A stretch of DNA of 18,924 nucleotides from Chlorokybus atmophyticus (Eukaryota; Plantae; Mesostigma and Chlorokybus algae): positions 1 to 18,924 of the forward strand of contig RHPI01000385.1 of assembly GCA_009103225.1 (NCBI GenBank). The letters run 5' to 3'. Below the pieces are notes generated by a model that searched no databases, was not told the DNA's origin, and was given only the letters and a program-made list of their open reading frames with translations. Positions 1 through 18,924 of this stretch are shown here, piece after piece (position 1 is the stretch's first letter; every line of letters begins with the position of its first letter). A program made the translations under genes and the position numbers.

Positions 1-311
1 AGACCAAACAATCAGTCCAAGGTTTGTACAAGCTGCATGGCATGTTAGTGTTGGCTTACGGCAAGAATTGCCAGCTTTTGTCAAATGGCAAGGGTCACAT
101 ATTAACAGCAGTGTAACGGCAAAGAAACTGCCGGCTATGGCTGTCAGCTGTACGTAACTACCGGATAACGGCCGTCTGTGCACATCGACCAAAGGGTAAC
201 TGGTTGACAACTCTCGGCCGGTTAGTGCCACTGACAACCACTTTCGGCCCGTGGCCGTCTGCGTCAGTCCACTTAAGCCAACGGCAAACCCAACAGTCCA
301 AAAGTAATATT

Positions 312-348
312 TCAGGCAGGCTCAGGCAGGCTCAGGCAGGCTCAGGCA
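312..348 (+). repeat. 10-bp minisatellite (TCAGGCAGGC) x3.7
   Basis: Read directly from the sequence. Confidence 0.95.
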
Positions 349-351
349 CCA

Positions 352-397
352 GTCAGTCCCTCAGTCCTTAGTCAGTCACCGTGTAAAATTTGCGACG
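352..397 (+). repeat. Conserved 46-nt terminus, copy 1
   Basis: GTCAGTCCCTCAGTCCTTAGTCAGTCACCGTGTAAAATTTGCGACG aligns without gaps to 7454-7499 at 37/46 positions. Confidence 0.9.
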
Positions 398-600
398 GAT
401 GCGGTCATTGCGAAACAAACAAAAGTTGCAAAAGCGCAAGTTTTAGACAAGTAAGGGAGCGCGGCTTCGTTTCTGAACGACTGCAATCTCACTTGCTTCG
501 TTTGTAAAGGTTGATGGAGGTCCTATACGCTGAGGAATATCAGAAACTGTCTGTCAAAGAGCGGCGCAGAAGGCTGGACGATCTTCAGCAGAAAGCTTGA
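398..600 (+). pseudogene. 5'-truncated 3' end of an unknown gene with a 59-nt intron (451-509)
   Basis: Removing GTAAGG(451)...TTTGTAAAG(509) joins two frames into DAVIAKQTKVAKAQVLDK-LMEVLYAEEYQKLSVKERRRRLDDLQQKA*. It begins immediately after the conserved terminus ending at 397. Confidence 0.5.
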
Positions 601-904
601 TACTGTTTTGCGTAAATCATGCAGTGCAGTTGCCCAGAGCAGGATACGTATACATCAGTGTGGTGCTATTAACTCTCGCCACTCCACGGTGGTCTTAAAA
701 AACCGCAATGACGGGGCTCAAGACACGAACATACCTCAGTGAACACACATAGTACATGTAGCAAAACACGGACGCATTGTTTGCGTAAACCGATGCATTG
801 GTTCTGATCAATTGCACACTGTACTCTAGTATGCCAAATATGTTCGGCTAGCAGAGCCTGAATCCTCACATGCCGCAAATAGTGTTGACCAGCATCAGCA
901 TCTT

Positions 905-1466
905 ATGAGCAGCGGCGGTGTCACAATAGCACTGGTGGCGGCTGTCACGAGCGTGGTAACCTTGGTGGGGAAGATGGCTTTTGACTACTTCTACAACCCG
1001 AGCACCACTGACGTTATTGCAGCCAGCGCGCGCTTGGACAAATTGGGCGGTCAGCTGAAGACGTTCTTGTGGCCTCTGTTCGCCACGCTGCGTTCTCAGA
1101 AGACCCTACTAGACAAGATGGGGGCGTCCGCTCTGGACAAGGACCCGCGAGTGAGCGAATACATTCGAGACGATGCAAGAGGCGGTAAAGCTGATACGCG
1201 ATGGGATTGGCGTTGCCGACCTGTCTAGGCAGCTGACCGAAGACTTGCTGCGTTATACCGACTTTGTGGCGCTGTACATCGTGCTGGCGCGCTATACCGG
1301 GAAGGTTGTCGGCACTCCGGCAGATTTCGGGTGCTCGTTCCTAGCCAACGTCATCAGCACGCTGAAGAGCGAAACGACCGCGGTGCGCGATTTAGATCTA
1401 CCAGCAAGACATGTTTCCCATAGGGTGGCGTCCATTGATAAGGGAACGCCAGGTGGCGGGCGGTAG
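905..1466 (+). pseudogene. Hypothetical N-terminally membrane-anchored protein, split by one frameshift near 1172
   Basis: ORFs 905-1228 and 1173-1466 join at ...EYIRD / MQEAVKLIRDG.... Hydrophobic N-terminus (VTIALVAAVTSVVTLVG). No family recognised. Confidence 0.55.
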
Positions 1467-1538
1467 ATTCGGGGTAGGTGTCCCGCGATCTGGCGACAAT
1501 CTCTCGGTCTAAGGACTTTATGGTGTCTGTGTATAGCA

Positions 1539-1826
1539 ATGTCGGGTGCTCCACCGAGCGTCAACTACGCCGCGGCAGCTAATCACGCGGCAAGGATCGC
1601 TGTCGGTGGACTGAACTGGGGCAAGTGGATCGCTATAGGTTTTTTGTGCGCAACGGTAGTAGTGTTGATTGTGCTACACGGCGTTTTTAAGACGGATGAC
1701 AAGAAGTCGGAAGTAGGGTTCACCCGCACGCTCTGGTTGGGCCGCAACACTGGTGCTATACCCCTGCTAACCCGCGTCTTGGTGGTGTTCATGGCCACAC
1801 GCATCATCGTTTTGGTTGCCATCTGA
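1539..1826 (+). CDS. Small hypothetical membrane protein with two hydrophobic segments, 95 aa
   Basis: Intact ATG-TGA ORF with segments WIAIGFLCATVVVLIVLHGVF and LLTRVLVVFMATRIIVLVAI, in the same orientation as its neighbours. Confidence 0.55.
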   Translation: MSGAPPSVNYAAAANHAARIAVGGLNWGKWIAIGFLCATVVVLIVLHGVFKTDDKKSEVGFTRTLWLGRNTGAIPLLTRVLVVFMATRIIVLVAI

Positions 1827-2109
1827 TTCGTATCGAAGCGGATCGCGTTCATCGATCCCGTCCGCGGGCTGTTCCGAGCGTCCGTGGGTGTAGCACAAAA
1901 CTCGCTCTAAGCCAGCGGACTCGGATGGACAGAAACGCAATAGCATGGCGGCGTTCGAGGTGCGTGGATCGGCTGCTGATGGAGACTTTGCCGTCGCGAC
2001 AGCCTTTCTGCGTGGGGGCGGCAAAAAGGTGCAAACGTCCCCGGGCGGACGGTCCATTGCAGGTGCGGCACGGTAGCCGCATGGTCGGGGGCCTCCCCGA
2101 ACTTCGCGT

Positions 2110-3151
2110 ATGTGGACAGCCTCGAGCCGCTCCTAACACCCAGTTGAGATCGCTACGTGATGTTTCCCATAAGATACCCCGATCTGTACGACGCCTACAA
2201 CCAGGCGGTCGCCTCCTTCTAGACGAAGAAGGAGATCGACTTCACCGCCGATCATACCGACTGGAAGAACAAGCTCACCAAGGAAGAGCACGAGTTCTAA
2301 AAACGGTAATTGCGTTCTTTGCGGCAAGCGATGGCATCGTAGCAGACAACTTGGTCCAGAGGTGTTGCATCGACGTGCAGGTGAGTTCCGCGATGTTGTT
2401 GAAAACGTTGGGGTCGCGTCACGATGCTGATGGTATGTTTGCCATAGGTGTCCGAGGCTCGCGCCTTTTACGCGTATCAGATGTTCAACGAGATGATCCA
2501 CTCCAACACGTACAGCCTAATAATCGAGTCGCTGGTTAGCGATCCCGTTGAACAGCGGCGGCTTTTCGGTACGATAGATACTGTCGTGTTCATTAAGCTG
2601 AAGGCGGATTGGCGCTGCGTTGGATGGCTACTAAACAGCCGTTCGCCCACCATCTCATGGCTTTCGCGTGCGTGGAAGGCATCTTCTTCTCTGCGTCATT
2701 CGCAACCCTTTTCTGGTTGAAGAAACGGGGCCTGCTCCCTGGCGTGATTTTCAGCAATTAGCTGATCGCTCGCGACGAGGGCATGCACCAGAACTTTGCG
2801 GCCCTCCTGTTCAAGCACCTGCACTTCAAACCGGACCGGGTCGTTCTCCGCCAAAATGTCAGCAGCGCCGTCGCCGCTGAGATCGCGTTTGTGCGCGAGT
2901 CCTTACCTAAGTGTTTTGTCGGCATGAACGCGGACTCCATGGCGGACTACGTCCGCTTTGTTGCGAACCGTCTGCTGTTGCAGTTCGGGTACGACAATGC
3001 GTTCGGTGCAAACAACCCGATCGACTTCATGGAGGCCATAGCGCTGCAAGGCAAGACCAACTTCTTCGAGCGTAAAGTTGCGGACTACGGCCGCGTGTGC
3101 GACATGTCGGAGCGTTCCGATATGTTGTTCGATACCGAAGCAGATTTGTAG
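2110..3151 (+). pseudogene. RNR2: Ribonucleotide reductase small subunit (class Ia R2) pseudogene, probably viral
   Basis: Reconstruction: EPLLTPS*DRYVMFPIRY...[90 protein letters not shown]. Diiron ligands and the radical Tyr are recognisable. Stops at 2145, 2220 and 2759; 1-nt deletions near 2297 and 2612; intron 2381-2447. It lacks the long N-terminal extension of many cellular R2 proteins. Confidence 0.95.
2381..2447 (+). other. 67-nt GT-AG spliceosomal intron in RNR2
   Basis: CAG|GTGAGT donor, CTGAT branch-like motif near 2427, CCATAG|GTG acceptor. Removal restores DVQ-VSEARAFY in frame. Confidence 0.88.
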
Positions 3152-3214
3152 ACTAGCGACAATGTAGCAGCTTGAGCTCGAAGGCGATAAATTCCCTCGC
3201 GCTTTGCAATACCG

Positions 3215-4087
3215 GTGATGGCGTTCGTGCTGCCTGCCATGCTGCTGTGGAACAAGGGCAGCAAGCAGGAAACGCTTGTGAAAAGCACCTACAAGTATTC
3301 GGCCGATCAGACATTGCAGTTCATTGCTAACCAAACGAACGTGTGCGAGTCGCACGGCTCGACCACGCTCAACCAGATTGTCACCACTGGTGACAAAGAC
3401 GTGCAGTTGAAGTGTCTTAGCGTCGTGCAGCAGTTCGCCGGGTCTCAGCGGACCCGCGCTGCAGGCCGCGCTGGACACGTGCAAGGTGCACAACAGCACC
3501 ATCTCAGACGTGACGCAACGGGGCCTCATGGTCATGACAAACAAGTGCCAGCTGAGCAACTTAATAACGCAAGATCTCGTCATCTAGCTGTCTACGGCGG
3601 TTCAGCAGATGATGAAAGATTCAACGGACGCCGTATCAAACGTGCTCACCAACGCGACAGCTTTGCTGCTCGGGGGCACCAAGAAGAAGTCGACCATCAA
3701 CGAAGTCGACATACAACGTGCTCAACACCGTGTATACGGTCGACAACGTTAACCGGTTCCTCATTGGGATGGCGGAGACAATGAATCAGTACCGTAATCA
3801 CCGGCTTCTGCGACAACTATTCGGTCTCGAACATCGTGCAAGAGGTGGAGTTGTATGCGATGGCGGAGATGGTCTCCAGCAACTCGGCCTTGCAATCGGC
3901 GATTGTGCAGTCGGCACAGCAGGTTGCCCAGGATACGGCGACGGAGAGAAAGGGACTCTTTTCGTCACTAGACAGCCTTTTCAAAGCCTTGTCCAGCCCA
4001 TGGGTCATGATGGCCGTCGCATGCGTCGTGTGCCTGGTGCTAGTCTGGGTGTTCACGTACTTCAAATATCGGTCCGAGTCCAACTGA
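3215..4087 (+). pseudogene. Putative poxvirus L1/F9 (ASFV E248R, iridovirus 53R)-like virion membrane protein pseudogene
   Basis: Three frameshifts (~3455, ~3715, ~3790) and a stop (3585) join into one ~290-aa protein. It is Q/N/S/T-rich with spaced Cys (NVCES, LKCLS, DTCKV, NKCQL, GFCDN), followed by SAIVQSAQQVAQDTATERKGLF and a C-terminal TM helix (WVMMAVACVVCLVLVWVF). Family call is from architecture only. Confidence 0.6.
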
Positions 4088-4133
4088 GCAGCGTCGTCAA
4101 CAGTATTTTGTCAGGCCTTGGCAATACGCTACG

Positions 4134-5212
4134 ATGGTCGTTGAAGAACGCGTGATGGGCCCGTTTGGCATCAAGGCGGCACAAGCAGACCCCAATGTGC
4201 TTGTCTCTAGCGACCCGGGTTACTACATTACTGGCATGTCGGGGTGCTCCGGTGATGCGATCGATCGCATTACGTCCGTGGAATGCAAGAACGCGCTCAC
4301 TGGCAGCGTCGCCTCCAAAATGGACAAGCAGATAGGCACCAGCAAGGGGGGCGGAAACGTCGGGAAGATCGCGTGCCCGGACAACTACTCGGCACTCAGC
4401 GGGTTCATGGTAAAATCGGGCGACGATGTCGTGTCGCTCAGACCCGTCTGCCGGCAATGGGGAGACGTCACCAGCCCACTGAAAGACTTTAACTACCCAG
4501 ACCAGAGCGTGGGCAACAAGTCCGGCACATCGTCGCAGTTGTGCGACAAAGCCAATCAGGCGGTGTACATTAAATGCAGGACATGCATGCGCATGCACAA
4601 GGTGTAGTCCAGTCAGCACGCAGCAACACATGCAAGGTGTCGTACAAATGACATTTAGTTGACCACCGGGCTACTACTAGCACGCTAATCTACTGCCTCT
4701 ACCCCGTTAGACATGCAGCAGTCAATATGCAGTTGGTAATCACCTGCCCACATGGGCATTGGTGTATATATGCGATCGAAGGCGGTGCCAGGGGCGATAA
4801 GGGCACGGTCGTTAATCTGCGGCATTGCACAGACTTTCAAAGTTGGCTCCAGGTTGGCCCGGCGCGTCGGTTCTTGAACAACACGAGCGATCAGGCCGCG
4901 TGCTGCGCTGGCGATGATAGCTCCAATGCGTGCAACGAGCTGAAAAACCAGCCTGGGATGTTCCAGCGCGGACACCATGTCGAAATGGTGCATGAAAGAC
5001 AACGTTGGCACGGATCACTGATGCAAGACGTACCTCAACATAAAAGGGCTGAGCGACCCCTTGGCGCAGAAGCTACTGATTGGTAACGACGACTCCTTCT
5101 GCTGAACGGACAACAGGTGGGCGAACCACGACATGTGCCGGGACATCTGCACGTTCAGCGCGGGCGACAAGGCGTACGGCGCGGCGGGCAAGGAGCGATG
5201 CAACCAGAAGAT
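4134..5212 (+). pseudogene. Beta-prism (jacalin/VMO-I-like) lectin domain fused to an A16/G9/J5-like Cys-rich domain; interrupted and 3'-truncated
   Basis: Three repeats: YYITGMSGCSGDAIDRITSVEC, SALSGFMVKSGDDVVSLRPVC, and QAVYAIEGGARGDKGTVVNLRHC (the third is restored by removing 4568-4770). These are followed by AACCAGDDSSNACNELK..CSSADTMSKWCMKDNVGTDH*CKTYL..SFC*TDNRWANHDMCRDICT..ERC. Frameshift ~4957; stops at 5019 and 5103. Confidence 0.62.
4568..4770. mobile_element. ~200-bp MITE-like insertion at a TA site
   Basis: Excision restores GCG GTG TA|T GCG ATC in frame. TA is present on both sides; the insert begins CA, has TG before (TA)3, and has imperfect ends (CATTAAATGC vs CACCAATGC on the opposite strand). 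Confidence 0.7.
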
Positions 5213-5214
5213 AT

Positions 5215-5672
5215 TGCTACCAATGTATCGTTCATATTCCACTCAATAATCTTCATGAGCCAGTGCTTTACAGTTGGTGAGTGCTGATCCGGGACCATGC
5301 ATGGTCTACGAGGGCCGCTTGCGACCGTACCAGTGCGTATCATTGCCACCCTCAACTCCACTTTCACCGTGCGCAAGTCGGTTGTCGGGTCGCCATATTG
5401 CTGCAGCAAGTACGCAACAAGCTTGCGCTTCAAACTGCCACGAACACAGTAAAAGATCATTACAAACTCTGACGAACAAGGGGGATCTCCCCCCCCCCCC
5501 CCACCCCCCCGCGCTGAAATTGTTTTACAAGTTTCTTAACTTCGCACTCAGTTTGTAAATAGAGCAACGCATTAGAGTAACTGGCCTTGAACGCAATAAT
5601 GATGCGTGCGTCAAGAGGTTGAACTTTGCTGGTTGTGTCGGGAGGCACGGACAGACACTTCACGGTGTCCAC
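5215..5672 (-). mobile_element. pogo/Tigger (DDE_1) transposase remnant
   Basis: Minus-strand peptides VKCLSVPPDTTSKVQPLDARIIIAFKA, KRKLVAYLL..KVELRVAMI, LVDHAWSRIS and TVKHWLMK match the pogo-family LPPNTTSxLQPLDxGII and AWxxV..TIxNCW motifs. Frameshifted; acceptor TGTGCAG at 5673. Confidence 0.8.
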
Positions 5673-6625
5673 CTGCACACAGGGCTCTTGACGCCTGGAC
5701 CTGTCGGAGGTGGCGCGCAGACCATATATGTCACGACTCAGCGTATCTGTGCCGCGACCAGTCCGGCGTGATCGGACCACTGATGGTCCGGCCCCGACGC
5801 CCGCCAATATGGTCTAAATGATCGGAGTAGGGCTGGTCGCGTGTCCCGCGGCTTGTTGACCGGTACAGCACTGGTCAGCACGCGGCCTGAGCAATAGGAC
5901 CAGGGCAGTTCGCATGCCCGGCCTATGAGCCCAGGCAGCACTGGTATCGAACGCATGTATTGTACGGACCAAGCATGGTTCTTCCAAGCAGGACCATGCT
6001 TGGAAGATGGTGTCGCAAGGCGTGCGGGGAGCTAATGTCGCAAAATGTTTCCCCTGCCGGCCGACCAAATATTGGCAATGGCCGTGCACCTGAGGATACC
6101 CATTTAAAATGTCCTGGCTCAGTCCACCTATAATCTCGATACAGGGACCTGAGTATAACGGCCGTCACCATTGGTTGGCGGCCGTCTGCATAAAGGGGCT
6201 GACCCTAATTGATGGTACCTGTAAGGTACCCATCAGTTAAGCAAAGGGACTTGACCTAATTAACAGATAGGCACATGCGACTTTACGCCGACGGTACCTA
6301 ACTGTCACGTACCTATAAAGTACCTTATGGTACCTGACGTTACTTTCAAGAGTACTGACAGGTAATGTTCATTGTACTGTGAGGAACGGCATGTCACAAG
6401 CAATATTGCTATTGAGAATTGAGAAAACTAAAAAAAATACATTGATAACACATTATATGCTGTTGCTATAGCATACTGTGAACTACTAGTACTGCTACTC
6501 CACTTCCCTTAACCTACCCTTCTACTAATTCCTAAACTAACTTGCTCCTCCTCCGCTCCTGCGCCTCCGCTCCTCCTCCTCCTCCACCGCCGCTTTATCG
6601 CAGCTCCAGCACTTCCGCCTGGCAT

Positions 6626-6859
6626 GCTCAGCAAGCAGAGCGGTTAGGCTATTACGCAACGCAACGGCATTACACATACATAAACAAACTCACCTATTAT
6701 GCCATTGCCGCCGCCGCCGCCCCCCGGCCTGGCCTGATCGGCCTAGTCTGCTCGGCAAGCAGGGCGGTGACGCTGCGCTTTTGCGCACCACGGCATCTCA
6801 TCACACATTTACACATATGCAAACAGTCTCACCTACTATGCCATGGTCGCCACCGCCGC
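6626..6859. repeat. Diverged tandem duplication (6626-6720 and 6750-6859)
   Basis: Shared blocks GCTC(A/G)GCAAGCAG(A/G)GCGGT, ACGGCAT, and AAACA..CTCACCTA(T/C)TATGCCAT.G.CGCC.CCGCCGC. Confidence 0.8.
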
Positions 6860-7040
6860 ACACCTGCCCAATTTGCTTGAAGCCGTTGTGCGCTTGAAGC
6901 GCTGCTACTTGGGCAGCAGCAGCATTTGATATGCTCAACGGCTTTAATAGCGCTGATGTACCACTAGATGGTACGATTGTGCCATGGTACAATAGAACCA
7001 TCGCAATGGTACCATAGATTGTGTTCCAAATAAGTGGTCC

Positions 7041-7081
7041 AACTGATATGTCACTGTTCCGAACTGATATGTCACTGTCCC
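7041..7081. repeat. 21-bp period direct repeat AACTGATATGTCACTGT(T/C)CC x2
   Basis: Read directly from the sequence. Confidence 0.92.
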
Positions 7082-7453
7082 AACTCGCTGCCATCGCTCG
7101 TCCCTAAGTTGGGACTAAGCGGAGACTTGCTTACCAATTCGGGCATGTCACCTGTCGCGGGCTTTACACGGTCGGTGGCCAACCGCCGGTAAAAGGGGAC
7201 TGACGGGTATCATTCGTCGCTCAGTAGGGGCCCAAGAGGTCACCTAATTTCTATGATAAGTAAGTCGCCGCCGCGGGTCCTGTACAATCGGCGATCGGCC
7301 GTCATCACAAGTTGCTTAAAGGGCATTACCGGCAAACAAGAGTTCAGTATCGAGTACGACAGGCGGCCATTACAAATTGTCCACGAAATGCATCGGCAGT
7401 CCACTCAGTCCCTTTATGGCCCAAATTGCTAGGGTCCGTTATGGTCAAGCGGG

Positions 7454-7499
7454 GTCAGTCCCTCAGTCTCTAGTCAGTCATGCCGACAGATTTGCGACG
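7454..7499 (+). repeat. Conserved 46-nt terminus, copy 2
   Basis: GTCAGTCCCTCAGTCTCTAGTCAGTCATGCCGACAGATTTGCGACG; direct repeat of 352-397. Confidence 0.9.
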
Positions 7500-8596
7500 C
7501 ACCTTAATCACCATTTCGAATTGCTTGAAGAGGAGCGGCATCATCCCACCTGCTTGGCATGCGCCCACTCCCGACACTGACGCATGCGAGTAGGCTGTTG
7601 TGCAAGATATCGGCGACATCATGCAGTATCTTCCCATTCCACGTGCGGAGATGCTCTCCCCAGCTGAGCTTGTTCACGTCGATGACACCCTCCCAACCGA
7701 AGCCGAGCAAAGCAATGAGGACATCCTTTCAAGCATCGGATGCGTTGAGGGGGCCGCTGCTGAGCCTGATGAAGCTACAAGTGAGGGATCTCTTTGCAGT
7801 ATATGTGTTTGTATGTGTATGGGCACTTACAATGCATTGTGTTGTAGATGATGAGGAGAAAGAATCACCCCCACGCATCACAGTGGCCGAGTGCATGAGG
7901 TTTTTGGATGGTGTGGAGGCCTTCATCGCCACCACCAATGACTGCCCCATCTCAAAGCACCATCAGCTCACCTTACGGCAGCTGCGCAACATGGTCGTCA
8001 AGCATCAGCTGTTTGATGCTGGCCATCAGACCACCATACATGACTTTTTCATTGCGAGTGCTTCTGAGCATGATGCTAGCACCAGTGGCACAAGTGGCTC
8101 AGTCGATAAGCCATTCGAGTTAAAGCAGCGTGCATACCATGCATGCACGAGTGCAGTCTGCAATGCTTGTATTGGTGGTGATAGCCTCGCAGATGCATGC
8201 TGCTTGCTCTTGCACACACATGCGAAGCAATGTGCTCATATCCACATTTAAGCCGATTCATCATGGATCTTATGCATGCGTGCGCACCAACATACATGCA
8301 CACAAACCCTTGTTGTATCATAACACTCTAAGCATGCATGCTGTCGCACAACAGTCTATTACATTGTATGCTATATAGTTGCTTAATGTACGTAAAACTC
8401 ACAATAATGATCATATACATGTGGAATGCACATACTTTGTTAAATAGCATATCAATTCTTGCAAAATGTGCTCATGCGCTTTCCAGGCAGAACCCCTGTT
8501 AAGAGAATATATGTTTTAGTAAAACCAAAAGAGTAACCCCGTTAGTGGCATGAAAAGCTCTAGGATAATCGTGATTCTTATAACGGGGGTAGACTG
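7500..8596 (+). mobile_element. 3' half of a second pogo/Tigger element: transposase C-terminus and right TIR
   Basis: TISNCLKRSGIIP (7501-), stop at 7591, 67-nt intron 7781-7847 (GTGAGG...TTGTAG) joining in frame to DEEKESPPRITVAEC...QTTIHDFF. The end reads CAGTCTACCCCCGTTATAAGAATC on the minus strand and is followed by TA (8597-8598), typical of pogo. Confidence 0.8.
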
Positions 8597-8706
8597 TACC
8601 ACAATATTTAGGATTTGCTTCGCGCGGGGGTACGAGTCGCGCGTACCGAAAGTTCCGGTGCAGAGCAGCGTGCTGTACTGTACCGGAATCCCGAACAGTG
8701 CACAGC

Positions 8707-9024
8707 CCCATGCCTGAGTCAATTTTGCGTGTGCGGCACACCTAGATGCATCTTTGGAGATGCATTCGAGTGGATGCATTTAAGTATGGGTAGGTAAAAT
8801 GCATCTGGTAGGGTGCATCTATTTGCGTGCATTCAACTACATGCATGTAAGTTGCATGAGGTAGTAAGGAAAGGAAAGGTTAAATACATCATATATCATA
8901 GTGTGTTAACATTGCAACATGCTTTTTAAAAACATTTATTTCTGGGTAGGTAAGATGCATGTTACTGGATGCTTCTACCTACATGCATGTAAGTTACATG
9001 ATGCAACATGGAAATGGAAAGTTG
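8707..9024. repeat. Degenerate copies of the same unit, mostly inverted
   Basis: 8978-9024 (ACATGCATGTAAGTTACATGATGCAACATGGAAA..) and 8838-8881 are reverse complements of ~9605-9640. 8707-8737 is a direct match to ~9358-9390. Confidence 0.8.
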
Positions 9025-9259
9025 TATGCGTTATGACAGATCACATAATTGCATAATAATCAACCACACTCAGTAACTTGCAGCGTGCATTTCATGATAT
9101 CGGGTGGAGGGCTTGCGTAGAAAAGAAGAGAGCAAACATGGTCAATTACTTCACTTTCAACGTATTTACGTTGTATGTATTTTTGTACGCAACTTGTTAC
9201 CATTGCAACAATAGCTATTATGCATGCATTCATTATTAAAACCTTCATTCTTATATAAC

Positions 9260-9724
9260 GTAACTTACATGCATTACCTATCCAAAACCTTGAATGATGT
9301 ATCTACCCAGATGCATCGTACAAGATGCATCTCGGTAAATGCCTCATTTAAGAGGCATCCCATGCCTTAGTCAACTTCGCGTGTGCTGCGGGGACTCGCA
9401 TTGCATCTAGGTGGACAACCTTCCTTGATACACCATGTCAGTTATATGCATTACCTATCCAAAACCTTGAAAAATGTATCTACTCATATGCATCGTACGA
9501 GATGCATCTAAGTAAATGCCTCATTCAAGAGGCATCCCATGCCTAAATCAGTTTCGCGTGTGCTGCGACGACTGGCATTGAATCTACCTAGATGATAGGT
9601 AGACAACCTTCCTTGTTACATCATGTAACTTACATGCATTACCTATCCAAAAACTTGAAAGATGTATCTACCCAGGTGCATCGTACAAGATGCATCTAGG
9701 TAAATGCCTCTTTCAAGAGGCATC
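9260..9724. repeat. Tandem array of ~177-188-bp hairpin-rich units (two full copies plus ~100 bp)
   Basis: Units start at 9260, 9437 and 9625 with GT(A/C)A(C/G)TTA(C/T)ATGCATTACCTATCCAAAA. Internal palindromes include AGATGCATC..GATGCATCT and ATGCCTC..GAGGCAT. Confidence 0.92.
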
Positions 9725-10185
9725 AAGTCTGGTGCAAAGGGTAAGACGATTGAAGTGGCAAGCCATGGAAACCCGCACTCAATGTCTTAAAATATGTACT
9801 GAAGGGTTAAGTGGACCAATATCTTTGCACTGTTTGTTGATAAATGAATTCTCAATGTTACATGTTCAACAAGTTGTGAGTTGGCGAAATCTTGTGGCCT
9901 GCACACTTGCAAACCTTTGTACACACAATGCGCTACGTCATTGCTCATGCATAGTGTCATTCATCACACGCATGCATCGGCACAGCAAGCAGTCTGCACT
10001 CACCCTCACATATATTCCACCACCGGGCTATACTACTACATTAAGTACATTACTACCTACACCACCACCCCATTGGTCATGCAAGTTATGCATGCATCAC
10101 ACTGTCATCACCTGTACAAGCACGAGCAGCAGCGTCAATGACGGCAGTGTTGCAGCAGCGTCGCAGCATGCAGCATAGCAACGGC

Positions 10186-10425
10186 TCTCCCTCCCTCCCT
10201 CTCTCCCTGTCATCCTCGTCCTCCTTCAACCCCCTCTCTCTCTTTCTTCCTTCCCCTCCCCCTCCTCTGCCTCTCCTCCGTCCTCCTCCTCCCACTCCGT
10301 CGCTGTTGCCATTGCAACCCTCGTTGTTGCTGGTCCTGCAGGGCCCCTCAGCCCTCCCCCTTCCCTGCTTCTCTCGCCTCCACCTCCACACCTCGCCTCT
10401 CATCCCACCTGCTGCTGCTTCCACA
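10186..10425. repeat. Pyrimidine (C/T)-rich low-complexity tract
   Basis: CCT/CTC runs; this explains the spurious Pro/Ser/Leu and Gly/Arg/Glu ORFs here. Confidence 0.8.
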
Positions 10426-10730
10426 CGCTGTAACCCTCGCAGGGCCCCTCTGCCCCGCCCCTCTGCTCTGCGTGTTGTTGTCTATCCTCACCTCGTGGGG
10501 CTACAGCAAGGTTGGGGGTGTTCGTGGAGTACGCATAAGCAATCATTACCGAGGCTCAGATGCAAACCATGCAAGTGTAAAGCGAGATGCAAGCGGAGAT
10601 TACAGGACAAATCAACCAGCACTACCATGGCTGACCTAGTTCGTGAAGCCCTGCTGCATGTCCATGTAAGCACAATGTGCTCATTGTGCTCGCAGCGCAA
10701 ACCACAATCACCAATGCCAATGGTAGCTTT

Positions 10731-12446
10731 TCATGCGACAGCAGCTGTTTTTCTAGACGAGGGTCCCAGTCCCAGTCCTAGCCAAGCTGCTAATGGAAAC
10801 TGTAAAAGCGCGAGCGCGAGCAGCATGTAGTTGCGGCGCGCACTGTCGAGGCCGTAATGTCTTGACTCGGCCACTAGAACGCGCTTCATCGTCTTGACCA
10901 GAAACATGGCCATGCACATGCCATGCCAGAGAAGAGCCACATAGTACGCCCATGTAGACAGGAACCCAACGCCGATATTCACGCAAACGGGCACAAACAT
11001 GTACCCGCTGTACCCGAGCAGGTCCAAAAACGGTACGCTGAGAGGCACTTGCGGCGTTGCCAGTGCATACAAACCCACTCTCAACAGAAACGCCTCCCCC
11101 ACCCAAGCCAACAGCGCCCGCGAAAGGCGCGCCCCAACCACGTCAGGAGTAAACCTACATGACAAACAGCCACGGTGGTCACATACAAATCAGGAACGAG
11201 GTCAAAACGTGTGTACAGCAGTGCCAATGATGCTACTCTGTTGGTAGTGAGTGAGAAGCAAAGCAAGAACGAGCATCTGATGATCGCGTCAAACGGCAAA
11301 CACAAGCTGCATACCTGTGCTCAACACCGATGGCAATGCTGCACATCATCACGTAAGTGCCAAACGCCATGCATGCAAGGTACAAGTCTGGCGCATTGAT
11401 ATCATAGAGTGGCGGCTTGTATGTCAGGCCTCCAGCTACTTGCTCCGGCACCCTGGTCCATGACCCCTGATGCATGTCAAGGCACGTCAGCCATACTGCA
11501 TCGAACAGTCACACGCCCAGCATGCCAACATACAAAACGACAAGGTCTAACTGCATGGAAAAATCTCCGACTCACTCTATGAAGGAAAGGGCAGAGGACT
11601 ATCTTCAGCTTGTTCAGCACGTAAGTGTTGTTGACTTGGAAGTAATAATGTAGGTCCTGCCCTTGGAAGTACCGTGAGAAATTGCTCTGCATCCTCTCGC
11701 CGTACGAGCGCGCAATTGCGCCGCCCATCGTCCCCATTCCCATGCCCATCCCGCCAAACATCCCAGACCCCGAAGCATCGCCGAATGAGCTGCCTGGTGG
11801 GGTCGGCTGCCTGTATCCATCATACTGGGAATGCACAGGAGAATATTGTTGTGAGCATGTGGTTGTGAGATGAAGTGTTCTTGTTGTCTTCTCTGTTTTA
11901 TAATTTGCTATCCTTTTTTGTCAAATCAATGTACACTCCTGCACCGTAGTGCTGAACATAGACGAGTCTCCAACCCAAGAAAACGTGCTTGCACATGCTG
12001 TCCATTTAACAACAAGAAGCTAACAAAGTGCAAACAAACATAAGCACGCTGCCCCCCCCCAAATACCACGCTGGCACAAGAGCGGCCAGAAACCAAAGAA
12101 AGTTTAAGAGCAGAAATGGAAGCAGGGCTCTATATACACCATGTGAGGAACAATGAAGCAAAACCCAAAACTCAGAAGCATAACTCAGTACTAAAACCTG
12201 CAACCAAACTGGGGTCTACTAATCACCCCATCGGTGGCACTTGGAAAACACTGTTCTTAAAGCTAAAAGCTAACACCATGCGTGTAGATTGTTAGAGACA
12301 TGACGGCTGGAAGATCATCGGCATGACCTAATCTCAATCTGTGATGCGCTAGACTGCTGCTGAATTACCGGAGTAGGTGGATGCTGCTGCCAGCCTCCGG
12401 GCGACACAACAGTCGGCCCGCTTGGGCCATACCCTGGCTGGTACAT
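10731..12446 (-). CDS. YIF1: YIF1 (Yip1-interacting ER-Golgi membrane protein), ~300 aa; exons 12446-12369 (inferred), 11824-11576, 11466-11315, 11154-10731
   Basis: Family motifs YYFQVNNTYVLNKLKIVLCPFLHRGSWTR, YKPPLYDINAPDLY..MAFGTYV, FLDLLGYSGYMFV and FLVKTMKRV. All introns are GT-AG and phase-consistent. The first exon is plausible but less certain. Confidence 0.92.
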
Positions 12447-12753
12447 GGCCCCCTCCCCAAGGCCAAACGACTGCTGGTAGGCCTTCAACCGCCCTAGCGA
12501 GGCCTCCTCAACCCTATCTACCGCACGCGAACCCTGCAAGGCGAAGTGGCGCCACAGCAGTCAGTGAGCTGCACTCATCGCCTGCTTCTACGGATAACCC
12601 TTGTCGTCGGCGACGGCGTCGTCGGCGGCAGGGCTGGTGGTGTTGACTGGCTCAGGGCGGACAAGCAGATCTCTCCCAAATACACTCTCGCGATGCCCAG
12701 GTGCAGCCACTGTCACAAGTGCGCAGTGCGCGACGCAGCTACAGACCCATTGC

Positions 12754-12754
<1 letters not shown>

Positions 12755-12804
<50 letters not shown>
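12755..12804. repeat. (TG)25 microsatellite
   Basis: Read directly from the sequence. Confidence 0.97.
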
Positions 12805-12805
<1 letters not shown>

Positions 12806-14459
12806 TCATCAACCACCATGCAACCATCCTGCATGGTCCATGCATGTTAAATGAATGTACCGTGCGTTGAAACCTGTGATATGCTCCGTCTTTTATCATG
12901 ATGGGCCCTTGTATCTTACCCTATGCATGCAAAATGATTGCAATGCAGCTTTGTGCAAGCTTGCTTCCCAAGCAGGAGCAACCGTTTTCGCAAGGTAGCA
13001 TATCGTTAAGGCTCACGTTAATTGCATTTGATGAAAAAATTTCGTATCTGACAGTACACAATAACTTTGTATTCATTACGAAGGCTATATTATGGCAGCA
13101 AAGCTCCATAGAGGTGCACACTGTTTATCAACTCTTGACGAACTAAAAGCTGTGTATAAAGCGTGACGGGACTGGCTGAGGTCAGATTCCCATATGCGAA
13201 AGTGATCTGATTGCACTTGCAGATTGGGTATGACATTGCGCTGTATTTCAGATGCCGCGGATCAGTTATGATGGGGTGGGCACACGTGCACGGCTTACAC
13301 AACATAATTTAATTCATTTGCTGTGATATATATATATATATACACACACAAGCACTATATACAAGCACTGTATGTTCATTGATGGTGAGGTTTGCTTGCT
13401 GGTTGTAAGTATATTCATAAAATGCGGACGCTGGTTTACGATTATGCCATGTACTATTATGATTGAGATGTACGACTTATGAAGGATTGCGACGGTGCAT
13501 GCTAAATAATCATAACATTGCCACATCACAACTGCAGCAATTAAAAGGTATGGTAATAGTTGCACACTATGCCCCGCACGCGCGTGCGCACAGCATTAAC
13601 GACACCCCCCNCCCCCCCATCACACAAAAAAAACCCACAAAAACACACACAGCGCAAATGACCACCTGCCGAGCGTAACCGCAGAAACATTTGAGGCAGC
13701 ACATCAACACATATACGAGCGCATGCGTGTGCATGCATAATAGCACGCACGCACGCACGCACGCACGATATAGCCCGGTGGTGGTGTATGCAAACGTGCT
13801 GGCATGCATGTGCGTACATCGTTGTGCATGTCTACAACTACCGCGCTCAGAATATGTACACAACACATCACACACGCAGCAATGCAGCAACACCACTGTA
13901 TATCGGTTGCAGTAAATACGAGCAGCCGTGGCGGTATGATATTTACGTCAGTTACCACAGTATATGCTCGTAGCACAAACAGCTTATTGTTCACCTGATC
14001 ACAACGATAACATACATACAAAATAAAAACGAGGTAATTCTTGGTACAACCACCTTAAGTCAGCAAAATAGGGCAGATTTTTTTGTCTGTACACGCTTGC
14101 CATGATAAAAAAAAAAACACAAATAAAAAAAAACTGCAAATAGCAATATGGAAACGCGAAAAATGAGACGGTAAATTGGCGTGATGAGCTGTTCGCTCTT
14201 TTGTTGCTTGGCTGCTGTTTCAGACTTCAGCACAAGTAGTAAGGGCTTAGCGGTTGACGTGGGTTTTGCGGTTAAACTCGCCACTCTGACAAGAGGCTGA
14301 AAGCTAACATAGTCATGAGACCAGGCAGCAGTCTCTAAGTGTTGGATGCAGAAACACATGCACACCATTGCATATTCTACACACTGTCCCTGTAGAGTTT
14401 GTGTGCGCGCGCGCGTGCCTGTTCATATATAACATCGGCAAAACAATGCCTGCGGCACA

Positions 14460-15830
14460 GGTGCGAGCACATTTATGTAATCTGGCTGCTGTAAGCGCGT
14501 TGATCAGCTTGGCCTTCACTTCAACAACAAGAAATGGGTATCTGGTCTGGTACGCATTCAGTAGCGCACCACCTAAGCCCGCCTGAGCCCCCCCNNNNNN
14601 NNNNNNNCCCCCCCCCACCTGTCCAATTGCGGCAACACAACACAAGAGTCTCAGCACCACAACCATTCTTATTGCAAGCAAATGTTTATGTGCATAGGTG
14701 TGCTGCTGCTGTACGAGGCAGTGAGAGCATCCCGAAGGATGTAGCTAGACGGGTAGCCAGAGTTGATGAGGTTGCGCTCCTTCTGCGTGGTGGCGATGTC
14801 AGCCTTCATCTGAGTAAAGAACTGGTTGTCGGCCGGCCAACGGCACCTGAAGCTGGTGGATGACCAGAAATTTTGAGAGCACCCTCGCGTCCTGCGCAGC
14901 CTTTCAATTAGCAAATCCTTTGGTTACACGCGTGCACGCATGCACCACAAGCACACATGTGCACAAGTGTGCTCATGCAACACACCAATGGAGTGACAGA
15001 TGGTGACAGGAGAAGATCTTGAAGATCTAAAGAGGAACAATTACACGTATGCACACCCCGTGCGCGCGCGCACACACATACATGCACACGGTGCGTGCGT
15101 GCGTGACTTGAAAATCTGCGTGCGCATGCACATTCAAGGTGACAGATGGAGGCCAGTGTGTGTGTGTGGGGTGGGGGCATTGCGTGTGAACCTGTGGGGC
15201 TGCGTGTACACGATGAACGAAGTAATTATCCAGTGCATTGGCCTTGATAATGTCCGGAGCCTTAACAGCGGGCGGGTAGAGGATATCGACCCCGCCACAG
15301 TTGTTGTCGGTGATTTCGCGCAGCAACACGCATTATGCGCTCAGGCCCAACGGCACGGAGCAGCAGCACAAGAGTGACGATGCGGAGGTCTTGTTGTAGG
15401 ACGGCCCACTGCTGGAGCTGCCGCAAGACGCCTGGCAGCCTCCGGACTTGACACGCGCAAAATTTTCGTCAAGCGTACACGTGGTGTGTTCGTGTTCTAC
15501 ACACCGTGTGTGTGTGCACACGCTTGAGTGTCTTTTCAAGTACTTTGCACGCTGCCGTTTGCCATGGTCACGTTGTTGCCATTGACGCTACAGGGGTTGC
15601 CTATGGTGCAGAGCTGCTTTACGCCCTTATCGCCGCTAGCTCCCGGGCAGGCGTATGTGGTGAGCGCATTGGTGCGCGCACTCTCTACGAGCATGTGATC
15701 CCGCTCAGCTGCGAGACCGACTACGAGCCGCTGGTCTTTAATTTGAACACGTTGGTGAACCCGTAAGCGAGCTGGTTATCAGCGGGCCCGCCCAGATCAA
15801 CACTGATCCCCACACGATCGCCATGCGTCC
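14460..15830 (-). pseudogene. Unidentified multi-exon coding relic
   Basis: C/G-ending codon-rich stretches join into GDRVGISVDLGGPADNQLAYGFTNVFK(fs)KDQRLVVG..CTIGNPC, GCQASC..LLCCC..SA*CVLLREITDNNCGG, and after intron 15191-14901 AAQDARVLSKF..VPLA(4-bp duplication)DNQFFTQMKADIA. A further possible exon reads YPFLVVEVKAK. Confidence 0.4.
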
Positions 15831-16959
15831 ACACACAGAACGGCACAAAGCAGGCCTGGACCTTGACACTGAGGGCGTTGACCAGGCCATACCTGCGCAT
15901 GTTTTAGCGCAGGGGAGATCAGCGACATAGGCGGGATCAGACACGCACAAGCAAGCAAATTCACACAAGGACACGCACGTGCATGCAGACACATGCATAA
16001 ACGCATACATGCGCACACACACGCCAACACGCACAACGTGTTGCTCACACACATGCAAACACTGAGAGCGTGCACACAGCCAACCCCACCACCCAACCCT
16101 ACCGACCAGACCTAACCGCCAGTGACACAGTGGCCCTGCATGCGGCAGTGCTGACGTTGGCACTGCGCGAGAAGGGTTAGGGTAGTGAGAGAAGCAGCAG
16201 CGGAAACTGCATGGCAGAGTGGGTGGCGGGGGCAGAGGGAGAGCAGGCGGAAGGGAGGGAGTCGTCATGCTGTGCTGCTGCTACTGCTGCCTTTGCCAAC
16301 ACCAACTGACAGAGCCCGTGTGGGCAGGTAATGCACTACTAATACGCATGTATGCATGCCTAACGAGGAGGTCTAGACTAGTGTAGTGTAGTGAGGAACA
16401 AACAGTGTGTGTAGTCCGGTGGTTGTGTTGTAATGTGCTTGCATGTTGCTGTTTGACCCTGCTAGAGAGGGGCGGCGGCGGTGGCGGCGGCTCCGGGCTG
16501 GCAGCCACTGCAGGTGACTCCCCTCGCGGAGGAGGCGGACATTGCACTAGCTGGGAGGACTGCTGGCACCCGTTAGTGGCCCGGTAGTAGCCTGGTTGCT
16601 GTGCTGGCTGCTGTGCTTGCTGCTATGCATGTAGTTCGTGGCTAGGTACGGACATGGTGTACGTCGTGCCCGCGTTTTTGTTAATGCCAATGGTGTTTGG
16701 CATGCTGTGAGTGAGGTCATGCATGTCTCCAGCTACTGCCAGCATATCCTGTACACACAATGCTCTGTGAGCACTTGCGCTCGTGCACAGAATTTCAATT
16801 GAGATTTAGTTGTGCACTGTCGTGCCGGTTTGTACGGATTGTGACATGCAACATGTCGCGCACCGACAGTCCAGCACACATGTGTGACAGCGAGCAAGTA
16901 TGCACAATTATTGGTTCATTTACAGTCTGTACACTGAGCAGCAAAGCTATCACGTGCCA

Positions 16960-18738
16960 TTATGCAACAACTGTTGCTCCTGCAAGCTGCCGCCGAGTAA
17001 GCTGTGCATATTCCCCATTCCTCCTCAACAACTCGTCGTGGGTGCCGACTTCTGCTACCGTACCGTTCTTCATCATGACTATCTGGTCGGCATCACGTAT
17101 CGTAGACAACCTGCAGATAAAAGCGGACGTTGCATCGCAAGTGCCGGTCAATAACAATTTCAATGCAACCTTACCGGTGGGCAATAACGACAACCGAACG
17201 CCTTTCTGAGCCATCACGCCCGCGCATCACTCTATCAAGAGCCTCCTGCACTAGCCGCTCACTTTCGGCGTCGAGCGCAGAAGTGGCCTCGTCAAGAATG
17301 AGAATCTGCGGCCATTGCTTCAGTCAAGTAAAAAGAACAACACAACTCACAATATTGCAGCCAACACCTGTACTCAACACCGCCATATGACATATCACAC
17401 CAAGTGCGGACCGCAAGTACCTTAGGATGTCGGACTAGTGCCCTTGCAATGGCTAATCTCTGTCAACAGATTGTTGAGTCAGCAATGGTAGGTGCACAAA
17501 GAGACAATCAGTTATGAGTGTGGTGTCACCTGTTTCTGTCCTCCGCTCAATGAAGTGTTGCTAACTGGCGTTTTATAGCCCTCAGGCAGCTGCGTGATAA
17601 ACTGATGGGCATTGGCCAACATGGCCGCATGCTCGACTTCAAGCTGGTTGAAGCCGCCTTCTTGAATACCATAGGCGATGTTTGTTTCAATATCAGCAAC
17701 AAACAAGGACGGCTCTTGCGAGACGACACCCAGCTGAGACCGGAACCATTTCACGTCCAGCTCGGTGAGTGGCCAGCCATCAATCAAGACTGTCCCTTCA
17801 GTGGGCTCGTAGAACCGTTGCAGCAGAGAGACAAGAGTTGACTTCCCGCTGCCCGACAAGCCAACCAGCGCAGTCACTTGACCTGGCTTCATCACGAGGT
17901 CCACGCCTTTGAGAATCTGTGCTTGTGGCCTGGTGGGGTAGTGAAAGCTGACATTCCTGAACTCTATGTGGCCGGTCAGCTTCTCAAGCTTGCGGCCTCC
18001 TCCAGGGATCAACTGGGCGGCCGGCGGCTTGTCGAGCAACTCCAGCACGCGTTCTGAGGCACCAATTGCTTCCATCACACCGGCCCATTGCTCGCCAATG
18101 GCCAGCGATGCGGATACGGCGAGCTCAATGTACAGGATGAATGAAGTGAGCTGTTGTGCGGTGAGCTGTCCCCTCATTGCCATGGCACCACCAATGAAGA
18201 CTGCTACCAACTGCCCGCAGTGACGCGTGTCATGGCCAACACTTAAGCAAGTGAACACCACCCATAAAGCTCAATAACCTCCGAACAGACTGCTTACCTT
18301 GGTACCTGTTTGAAAGGTCCACCAGTAAGCAACACTGTTAGGAGCAAACAACATAATAACCAGGCAAGCAAAAGGTTGATGCAAAGGGCAAATCAACCTG
18401 GTTCTTACAACATCATGCCATGTACAAATGCACAGTCATAGGAAAGCTACGCGTCAATGGCTTCACCGTGGTAGAGAAGGCTATTCATGATCGCAAACAA
18501 GCCGTAAGCCGCGACAATGCGTAGGTGGACGCCTGTGCCCCTTCGGTTCCACTCGTGATGTCGAAGCTCCTCACGCTTCTCACCGCCAAACGCTCTCACC
18601 ACACGCACCATTGACATCGCCTCCTCAAGGACCTACAACAGCACGCTGCCTAAGCTGTTACTAGCAATTTTTGGCATTGCATACAAGCTCCCGACAACTT
18701 CTGTCCTCAAATACCTGGCTAGTCCCTGCACGGGTATC
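16960..18738 (-). CDS. ABCB26: ABCB half-transporter, plant TAP1/ABCB26-like, 5'-partial; exons 18738-18715, 18632-18467, 18305-18298, 18210-17530, 17459-17421, 17305-17175, 17110-16960
   Basis: Walker [11 protein letters not shown]-loop SQEP, signature [15 protein letters not shown], Walker [14 protein letters not shown]-loop IAHRLST. TMD end [28 protein letters not shown]. All introns are GT-AG and phase-consistent. The ABCB call is firm; the orthologue name is from recall. Confidence 0.93.
18298..18305 (-). other. 8-nt microexon GTACCAAG of the ABCB gene
   Basis: Flanked by ...TTTCAAACAG and GTAAGC. It bridges a phase-1 exon end (CAC G) to a phase-0 exon start (TTG GTA); without it the frame breaks. 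Confidence 0.85.
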
Positions 18739-18884
18739 CTGCACGCGGTTCAAAGCTTTAGTATTTGATACAAGCGTATCTGTGAGCAGTACAAGTACCC
18801 ACAGCAGTAGATGCATGGTATCCTAGACTGTTTCACAACACCTTGTGACTAAGTAACGTTACACTTCATACACTGGATTCACCA

Positions 18885-18885
<1 letters not shown>

Positions 18886-18924
<39 letters not shown>
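18886..18924. repeat. (TA)n microsatellite running off the window end
   Basis: Read directly from the sequence. Confidence 0.97.

Follow-up and report, generated by a model that had tools for sequence, protein, structure and literature searches.

A probable decayed fragment of Algavirales-like giant-virus DNA in a chromosome of the streptophyte alga Chlorokybus atmophyticus

The Relic and Its Host Setting

The DNA analysed here, called the window throughout, is a stretch of 18,924 nucleotides from Chlorokybus atmophyticus (contig RHPI01000385.1 of assembly GCA_009103225.1, positions 1 to 18,924 of the forward strand). Positions 902–5213 of the window are best read as a dead remnant of Nucleocytoviricota DNA, related to the algal-virus order Algavirales and lying in the chromosome of this alga, a reading to which a probability of about 0.82 is given. 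The remnant, of about 4.3 kb, consists of five genes on the plus strand separated by gaps of 34–90 nt, across which seven premature stops were found (1824, 2145, 2220, 2759, 3585, 5019 and 5103). About eight frameshifts were counted in the same stretch; two, in the gene for the small subunit of ribonucleotide reductase (R2), were fixed by Pfam matches and three, in gene 4, by alignment with a homologue, the remaining ones being inferred from overlapping frames. An earlier note on this DNA had described a dense cluster of genes interrupted by stops and short indels, and this was confirmed by six collinear pieces of the R2 family PF00268, by the premature stops and by two lesions that recur in contigs of one sequencing run (X1). 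The packed cluster stood, but not the count of "six or more" genes: five are definable, and a sixth was not counted because the unique spacer at 398–901 (GC 0.47, observed/expected CpG 0.92), which is not taken as viral, lacks a coding signal, the longest open frame in 398–900 being 76 aa, no better than in shuffled sequences (p = 0.48), with no Pfam match in the three plus-strand frames.

In its CpG excess the relic is unlike host DNA. Host DNA had an observed/expected CpG ratio of 0.75, compared with 1.16–1.18 for the viral part and 0.51 for a repeat inserted in gene 5, and the GC content at third codon positions (GC3) was 0.67–0.79 in the viral part versus 0.64 in two host exons. The depth of the viral part in run X1 was 2.4–4.7, a single-copy-like level. 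The host was identified through YIF1, an intact gene with introns (10731–12446, minus strand), whose last exon (10734–11156) is identical at 141 of 141 residues to the Chlorokybus atmophyticus protein jgi/Chlat1/9088 (EP00898 Chlorokybus atmophyticus P008985), the next matches being from Closterium with 45–51% identity, which shows the window to come from a chromosome of a streptophyte alga. The 300-aa YIF1 protein could be placed whole onto the window, as exon pieces and free of errors. The earlier statement that the host genes are lesion-free thus holds for YIF1 and, as far as the single stop-free exon examined goes, for ABCB. YIF1 on the same assembled sequence, the host repeat within gene 5 and the single-copy-like depth all place the relic within host chromosomal DNA. 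The earlier note had pointed to giant endogenous viral elements (GEVEs) of green algae; the host here is a streptophyte and not a chlorophyte of the kind usually cited for GEVEs.

No hallmark gene (PolB, MCP, A32, VLTF3 or D5) was found in 390–5300, where R2 was the sole match in a comparison with 80 viral loci and 6457 viral open reading frames (ORFs); the search for PolB, MCP and A32 proposed in the earlier note was thus negative for this stretch. For want of a hallmark gene the relic is considered small and not a giant element, and at 4.3 kb it differs from GEVEs in the strict sense, which carry hallmark genes and extend over tens to hundreds of kb. Accordingly, the description of this DNA as a decaying GEVE piece is retained for a Nucleocytoviricota fragment in an algal chromosome, but not for the word giant. 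A gene with giant-virus homologues is present in the form of gene 4. Three features were added to those noted earlier, namely the R2 intron, a 201-nt repeat within gene 5 and, from 5290 onwards, a DDE transposon.

The Ribonucleotide Reductase Gene

Gene 3 (1945–3151, plus strand) is an R2 pseudogene of giant-virus type, with three premature stops and three frameshifts, one of which, near 2075, is inferred. PF00268 was matched in six collinear pieces (profile positions 1–23, 25–49, 51–77, 79–132, 134–185 and 187–281) that cross two frame changes, two stops and an intron. The intron, of 67 nt (2381–2447, plus strand), is predicted to be spliceosomal from its ends (GTGAGT...ATAG) and from the continuity of the profile, the exon pieces stopping at profile position 77 and restarting at 79. 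The motif FYAYQMFNE is present in the window; the YxYQxxNE/SE type to which it belongs occurs in 24 of the 199 compared R2s, and FYGFQ stands at this place in every named row from animals and fungi. Viral contigs with an R2 of the YQxxNE/SE type also bear what we take, by recognition, to be capsid-, A32-, VLTF3- and D5-like genes. The best full-length identity among the 199 R2s was 54%.

A mixture-model tree of 54 rows, picked from 78 representatives of 312, gave a smallest supported set (100/97) of 20 rows, made up of the window R2 and 19 partners. Each partner either comes from a viral contig or is an unnamed protein that clusters with such R2s, and the partners comprise prasinovirus-like and related giant-virus R2s. 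The R2 identity given in the earlier note was upheld by the Pfam pieces. Within the giant viruses, contigs L119–L135 form a weakly supported sister group of the window R2. The gene order kept in these contigs is presumably, by recognition, capsid, A32, VLTF3, a glutaredoxin-R2 fusion, RPB5 and topoisomerase II, and L135 additionally holds what appears to be an Atg8-like gene. A glutaredoxin remnant as an N-terminal extension of the window R2 was considered and rejected, no score being obtained with a hidden Markov model (HMM) of 46 glutaredoxin domains. At 2655–2700, two contigs of a second run (X2) match the conserved R2 part only, and upstream of it, by a likely 3' splice site, they carry a different R2-like sequence, which is probably a cellular R2 distinct from that of the window.

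In the virus, R2 would have provided deoxyribonucleoside triphosphates. The intron would either have been present already in the virus, implying splicing in the host nucleus, or have been acquired after insertion. Since 61 intron-bearing genes are described for the punuivirus in the part of the preprint used here (10.64898/2026.10.09.758095), the R2 intron may predate the insertion; the timing of intron gain in viral genes is left open in the sections of PMC9693826 considered.

The Membrane-Protein Gene

Gene 4 (3239–4087, plus strand; start perhaps at 3218/3219) is a pseudogene for a membrane protein of about 280 aa, with one stop and three frameshifts. A C-terminal transmembrane (TM) helix is predicted at residue 253 of 280, after an ectodomain with five Cys, which agrees with the architecture of L1/F9 proteins, a C-terminal TM helix after a Cys-containing ectodomain of 200–250 aa. 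The best match among 30 giant-virus records was P0142, a 265-aa protein with an MG start and a C-terminal TM helix from the prasinovirus-like bin G046:C28 (E = 2e-5 for one genome); a second match in these records (E = 0.004) was rejected as a chance match. When read through its lesions, gene 4 is collinear with P0142 over about 200 aa, with a score of 132 versus 47 ± 8 for shuffled sequences (0 of 1000 as good) and, without the TM helix, a score of 94 versus 51 ± 8. The best of 1244 background ORFs against gene 4 scored 59 and was an iridovirus-type L1. These alignments show gene 4 to be homologous to an algal giant-virus membrane protein of prasinovirus type.

The L1/F9 name of the earlier note was not established by sequence tests: the L1/F9 family PF02442 was not matched by gene 4, single-frame or read-through (controls: pox F9 9e-64, iridovirus-type L1 1e-20), nor by P0142, and the name is kept as a lead. 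Gene 4 was not matched by an HMM built from 22 iridovirus-type L1 proteins either, and the MG start seen in P0142 is not visible in the decayed gene. Weak similarity to true L1/F9 proteins was found for two of five (3 and 5 of 300 shuffles as good). In the ESM Atlas, the three best clusters for gene 4 were all from Nucleocytoviricota (0.88–0.89), the second having PF02442 on 13% of its members, and these matches count as leads. A full HMMER scan of the last 100 aa of gene 4 against 1.84 billion representatives gave two matches, an ankyrin protein and a repetitive 1721-aa protein, both rejected as repeat noise.

In BFVD, P0142 itself had as its closest named match, at 31% identity, a protein of a Bathycoccus virus; a "lipid membrane protein" of Marseillevirus (293 aa) stood at rank 49 (E = 3.2) and had, at 0.43, the top TM-score among the 50 rows. 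The fold that characterises L1/F9 proteins is a five-helix bundle with two beta-sheets. The single-sequence model of its ectodomain reached a predicted local distance difference test (pLDDT) value of 42, and a PDB-wide search with it returned generic helices only (best VIA Z 7.6). Among the records, which are partial and bounded, the P0142 family was found in G046 alone of 50, in 0 of 35 and in 0 of 5. PF02442 was found in 0 of 30 and 0 of 39 records behind the R2 loci, where no control matched either. A profile comparison with hhalign was uninformative, as its positive control (iridovirus L1 versus pox F9) failed too. One X1 contig tracks gene 4 to 3499 and then continues with 227 letters of other sequence, possibly a second, differently broken copy or an allele.

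The Cys-Rich Gene

Gene 5 (4134–5213, plus strand) starts 47 nt after gene 4 and is cut off at its 3' end; it carries two stops, one inferred frameshift and one insertion. The product has 15 Cys in 294 aa, with a beta-rich N-terminal part followed by a CC..C..WC..C..C..C..C..C region that may resemble A16/G9, the head presumably resembling a beta-prism lectin. The earlier assignment to A16/G9/J5 was not secured, since the family PF03003 was not matched and the gene is cut off; gene 5 is at most a candidate of this type, as judged from its Cys pattern. It ends at 5213 without a TM helix, and a J5-like domain would fall in the lost part.

Neither PF03003 nor any other Pfam family was matched by gene 5, and an HMM of iridovirus-type A16 did not match it. 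Its Cys-rich region gave no significant score against three iridovirus-type A16 proteins or the PDB, and a word-index search with the N-terminal 144 aa found none among 420 candidates. The single-sequence model of the head was all-beta but of low confidence (pLDDT 36), the best Foldseek match in the PDB having an E value of 0.48, and the ESM Atlas gave ricin-B-lectin clusters below 0.9 for a query that still held about ten residues read from the inserted repeat. PF03003 was found in 0 of the 30 records, a result to be read with the three of three iridovirus-type records that also fell below the cut-off. Three Cys-ended repeats were seen by eye in the head, and internal repeats there were not supported by the repeat test (p = 0.3–0.5). 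Two phage loci from a DNA scan with a J5 motif were rejected as chance matches.

Genes 1 and 2

The two remaining genes are orphans. Gene 1 (902–1466, plus strand; about 187 aa, GC3 0.68) is spread over two overlapping ORFs with one inferred frameshift near 1185–1190 and has an N-terminal hydrophobic segment, the hydropathy peak being at residue 9. Gene 2 (1539–1910, plus strand; 123 aa) has two hydrophobic segments and a premature TGA at 1824. An NCBIfam scan of the relic genes gave nothing credible.

Boundaries and Decay

Contigs of four sequencing runs were compared with positions 1–9000 of the window; host repeats were present in X1 and X2, and X1 is possibly the data from which the window was assembled. 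On the left, the relic with its spacer is bounded by the end of a high-copy, transposon-like host repeat (1–397). Its depth over positions 1–300 was 397 in X1 and 168 in X2 (0–2 in viral bins), and it stops sharply at 397. Position 397 is a transposon end, because nine X1 and five X2 contigs run into differing sequences there; loose ends behind it agree poorly (0.43 and 0.53). The earlier reading of 397 as the junction of virus and host was thus replaced by that of a repeat end with a depth of about 400. Positions 352–397 are 80% alike to 7454–7499.

On the right, transposon debris (5290–8250) bounds the relic, with multi-copy depth and with joints and loose ends at 5290/5336. It includes a fragment of DDE_1/pogo type on the minus strand (5463–5813; PF03184, E = 4e-4) and, at 7594–7848 and 7850–8250, a pair of exons that we take, by recognition, to be the C-terminal part of a pogo-like gene. 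Inverted joints (5336/5919, 5336/6000 and 5338/7506) were seen in X1 and X2 contigs. Inside gene 5 lies a dispersed host repeat of 201 nt (4568–4768) with TA on both sides, a depth of 20–29 in X1 and X2, and an X2 contig matching 4563–4763. This repeat is the best sign that the DNA of the relic has lived in a host chromosome.

Four X1 contigs match the viral part without differences (1464–1652, 2535–2723, 2809–2997 and 5003–5177), and X1 contigs reproduce two lesions exactly, the stop at 5103 and a frameshift close to 2612, each flanked by 31 or more letters on either side. The decay is accordingly real and not sequencing error as judged on these two bridged lesions, with X1 being possibly the source data. 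In X2 the host repeats were present and the viral genes had no coverage, which is not evidence of absence.

Origin and Alternative Explanations

It is proposed that viral DNA reached the nucleus in an ancestor of the alga, where host repair built it into a repeat-rich region, or that it is what remains of a larger insertion. Without selection it would then have decayed through stops and small indels, acquired a host repeat and been cut off within gene 5 beside the DDE transposon; the relic most likely has no present function. Genes 4 and 5 would likely have encoded virion membrane proteins for cell entry, an L1/F9-like protein and, beside it, a Cys-rich one whose head is putatively lectin-like, a suggestion with less support. 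An undescribed virus lineage is plausible because the best R2 identity is 54% and the neighbouring genes have no close relative, although pseudogene drift inflates the distance. Pattern scans for close relatives found none in viral contigs, one ordinary R2, and none or one weak match in metagenomes.

Several observations weigh against this origin. Gene 1 had no Pfam, NCBIfam or locus homologue, gene 2 no convincing family match and gene 5 no significant homologue in sequence searches, and 390–5300 holds no hallmark gene. The branch of the window R2 is very long (1.65) and green-plant R2s are absent from the tree, an approximately unbiased (AU) test with 30 rows did not reject its grouping with cellular R2s (p = 0.33), and FastTree on the first R2 set joined it with fungi (support 0.49). 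The R2 tree that the earlier note had proposed thus groups the gene with giant viruses, with the cellular placement not rejected. The N-terminal half of gene 4 alone was not significantly similar to P0142 (305 of 1000 shuffles as good), and P0142 had been chosen as the top match with the C-terminal piece of gene 4. Among the contigs listed from the runs none spans either boundary of the relic.

Some of these points would suit a cluster of host-derived pseudogenes, in which a cellular R2, copied by retroposition or duplication and since diverged, came by chance to neighbour decayed genes for unrelated membrane proteins, or the cargo of a transposon. Together with the AU result, fungal and fish R2s appear among the top matches of the C-terminal part at similar scores, the R2 gene has a spliceosomal intron, and genes 1, 2 and 5 are orphans. 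Such an origin is nevertheless rated as very improbable, as the R2 motif is of virus type, gene 4 is matched by giant-virus proteins alone, and the compact one-strand layout and the CpG excess are unlike host DNA. Slightly less improbable, though still with little in its favour, is a viral relic from a lineage outside Algavirales that bears the entry-fusion complex (Pimascovirales-, Asfuvirales- or Imitervirales-like) and had acquired an R2 of Algavirales type. Gene 4 does show its weak likeness to two of five true L1/F9 proteins, and the R2 sister group (P0078 contigs) carries what seems, by recognition, to be an RPB5-like gene. In the parts of the literature drawn on, the known pair of L1/F9 and A16 belongs typically to viruses of animals and amoebae (PMC10100723), and viral regions of a moss were placed near Marseillevirus/Iridoviridae (PMC4083422). 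Against this lineage, both informative genes, R2 and gene 4, indicate the same algal-virus neighbourhood, and the iridovirus-type L1 HMM had no match. Least probable of all is an assembly artefact, in which repeats led the contig of a live contaminating or co-infecting virus to be fused with host DNA, and sequencing errors account for the lesions. Repeats do lie at both ends, where misjoins occur, the boundaries are unbridged, and X2 has the host repeats with the viral genes uncovered (again not evidence of absence); however, two lesions were reproduced exactly, a host repeat lies within gene 5, the viral depth is single-copy-like and the nearby YIF1 is free of errors. An inserted and decayed fragment of Algavirales-like DNA remains the preferred reading.

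A Possible Entry Pair

In bin G046:C28 (locus L286, 9039–12497), the P0142 gene is divergent from two genes of the family DUF5773 (PF19082), with one small ORF between them. The DUF5773 proteins are Cys-rich with a C-terminal TM helix, and the family occurred in the same one of 50 records as P0142. Their similarity to iridovirus A16 was not significant. P0142 is homologous to gene 4 and likewise lies near Cys-rich genes, although the genes are divergent around a small ORF in G046 and head to tail in the window; between gene 5 and the two DUF5773 proteins the similarity was not significant (p = 0.03–0.09) and the N-terminal part differs. Compared with the poxvirus-type pair of L1/F9 and A16/G9/J5, genes 4 and 5 are alike in size, C-terminal TM helix, Cys content and adjacency, but differ in the missing Pfam matches, in the lack of a visible MG start in gene 4, and in the lack of a J5-like domain and TM helix in gene 5. 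According to the portion of Kao et al. 2023 (PMC10100723) used here, the L1 and A16 genes of African swine fever virus and kaumoebavirus share the layout seen in G046, and no isolated algal giant virus, whether a prasinovirus or another, has a member of either family. Remote homologues of the entry complex in a labyrinthulomycete virus are described in the part of a 2026 preprint considered (10.64898/2026.08.29.747986), and neither DUF5773 nor L1R nor membrane fusion comes up in PMC12906663.

A tentative idea, judged somewhat less probable than its opposite, is that genes 4 and 5 are a true but highly diverged pair of L1/F9 and A16/G9/J5 type, as P0142 and its DUF5773 neighbours would be, and that the ancestral two-protein fusion core was kept in Algavirales-like viruses infecting green algae and early streptophytes. 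The relic would then document, for the first time, a giant-virus lineage infecting the earliest-branching streptophytes, with a lectin-headed A16 for host glycans and a spliced R2. If this were true, the published view that the fusion core was lost at the root of the algal giant viruses would need revision. The relic also offers a cheap test of an open question, the entry of prasinovirus-type viruses into wall-less green algae.

Relation to Known Endogenous Viruses

Endogenous giant-virus relics in streptophytes are already known, and Chlorokybus is an added host; the known host range is thereby extended to a soil alga that is an early-branching relative of land plants. Chlorokybus diverges earlier than Klebsormidium, Entransia and Interfilum. 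For these three genera, Phycodnaviridae-like endogenous sequences of nucleocytoplasmic large DNA viruses (NCLDVs) with no isolated virus were reported by Gallot-Lavallee and Blanc in 2017 (PMC5294986), a setting like that of the relic; in contrast, Chlorokybus is not among the rows shown of the Streptophyta table in that paper, and the window has no core marker. As of 2017, the part of the same paper used here gives no giant virus as reported for streptophytes, so that relics of this kind are a principal trace of the viruses encountered by the forebears of land plants. A further close likeness is to the NCLDV-like regions of Physcomitrium patens, kilobase-scale pseudogenised giant-virus clusters with transposon insertions in a streptophyte genome, as set out in the sections of Maumus et al. 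2014 (PMC4083422) drawn on here. The moss regions comprise 61 loci with replication and transcription genes near Marseillevirus/Iridoviridae, whereas the relic has R2 and membrane genes, an Algavirales-like affinity and an intron; across 12 of the 15 supplements of the moss study there are no entries for L1R, A16, myristoylated protein or ribonucleotide reductase. With the chlorophyte GEVEs (the Algavirales GEVE of C. reinhardtii CC-2938 and the punuivirus), the relic shares a repeat-rich region, host-like GC and spliceosomal introns in viral genes, as far as the portions considered of PMC9693826 and bioRxiv 10.64898/2026.10.09.758095 describe them, but those elements extend over hundreds of kb, have hallmark genes and are in some cases active, while every gene of the relic is broken and its host is a streptophyte. 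No viral element was reported for Chlorokybus in the titles and abstract openings found, a scope outside which the genome paper and subscription journals fall, and PMC12344493 does not mention Chlorokybus.

Other Features of the Window

Between YIF1 and ABCB, exon-like Cys-containing frames on the minus strand (14669–15775) probably belong to a host gene; two pieces of it were scanned without a Pfam match. A pyrimidine-rich repeat flanks YIF1 in opposite orientations (10070–10480 and 16120–16300). At 8740–9774, a unit of about 177 nt is present in two to three copies that face inverted copies, an arrangement resembling a fold-back element or a miniature inverted-repeat transposable element.

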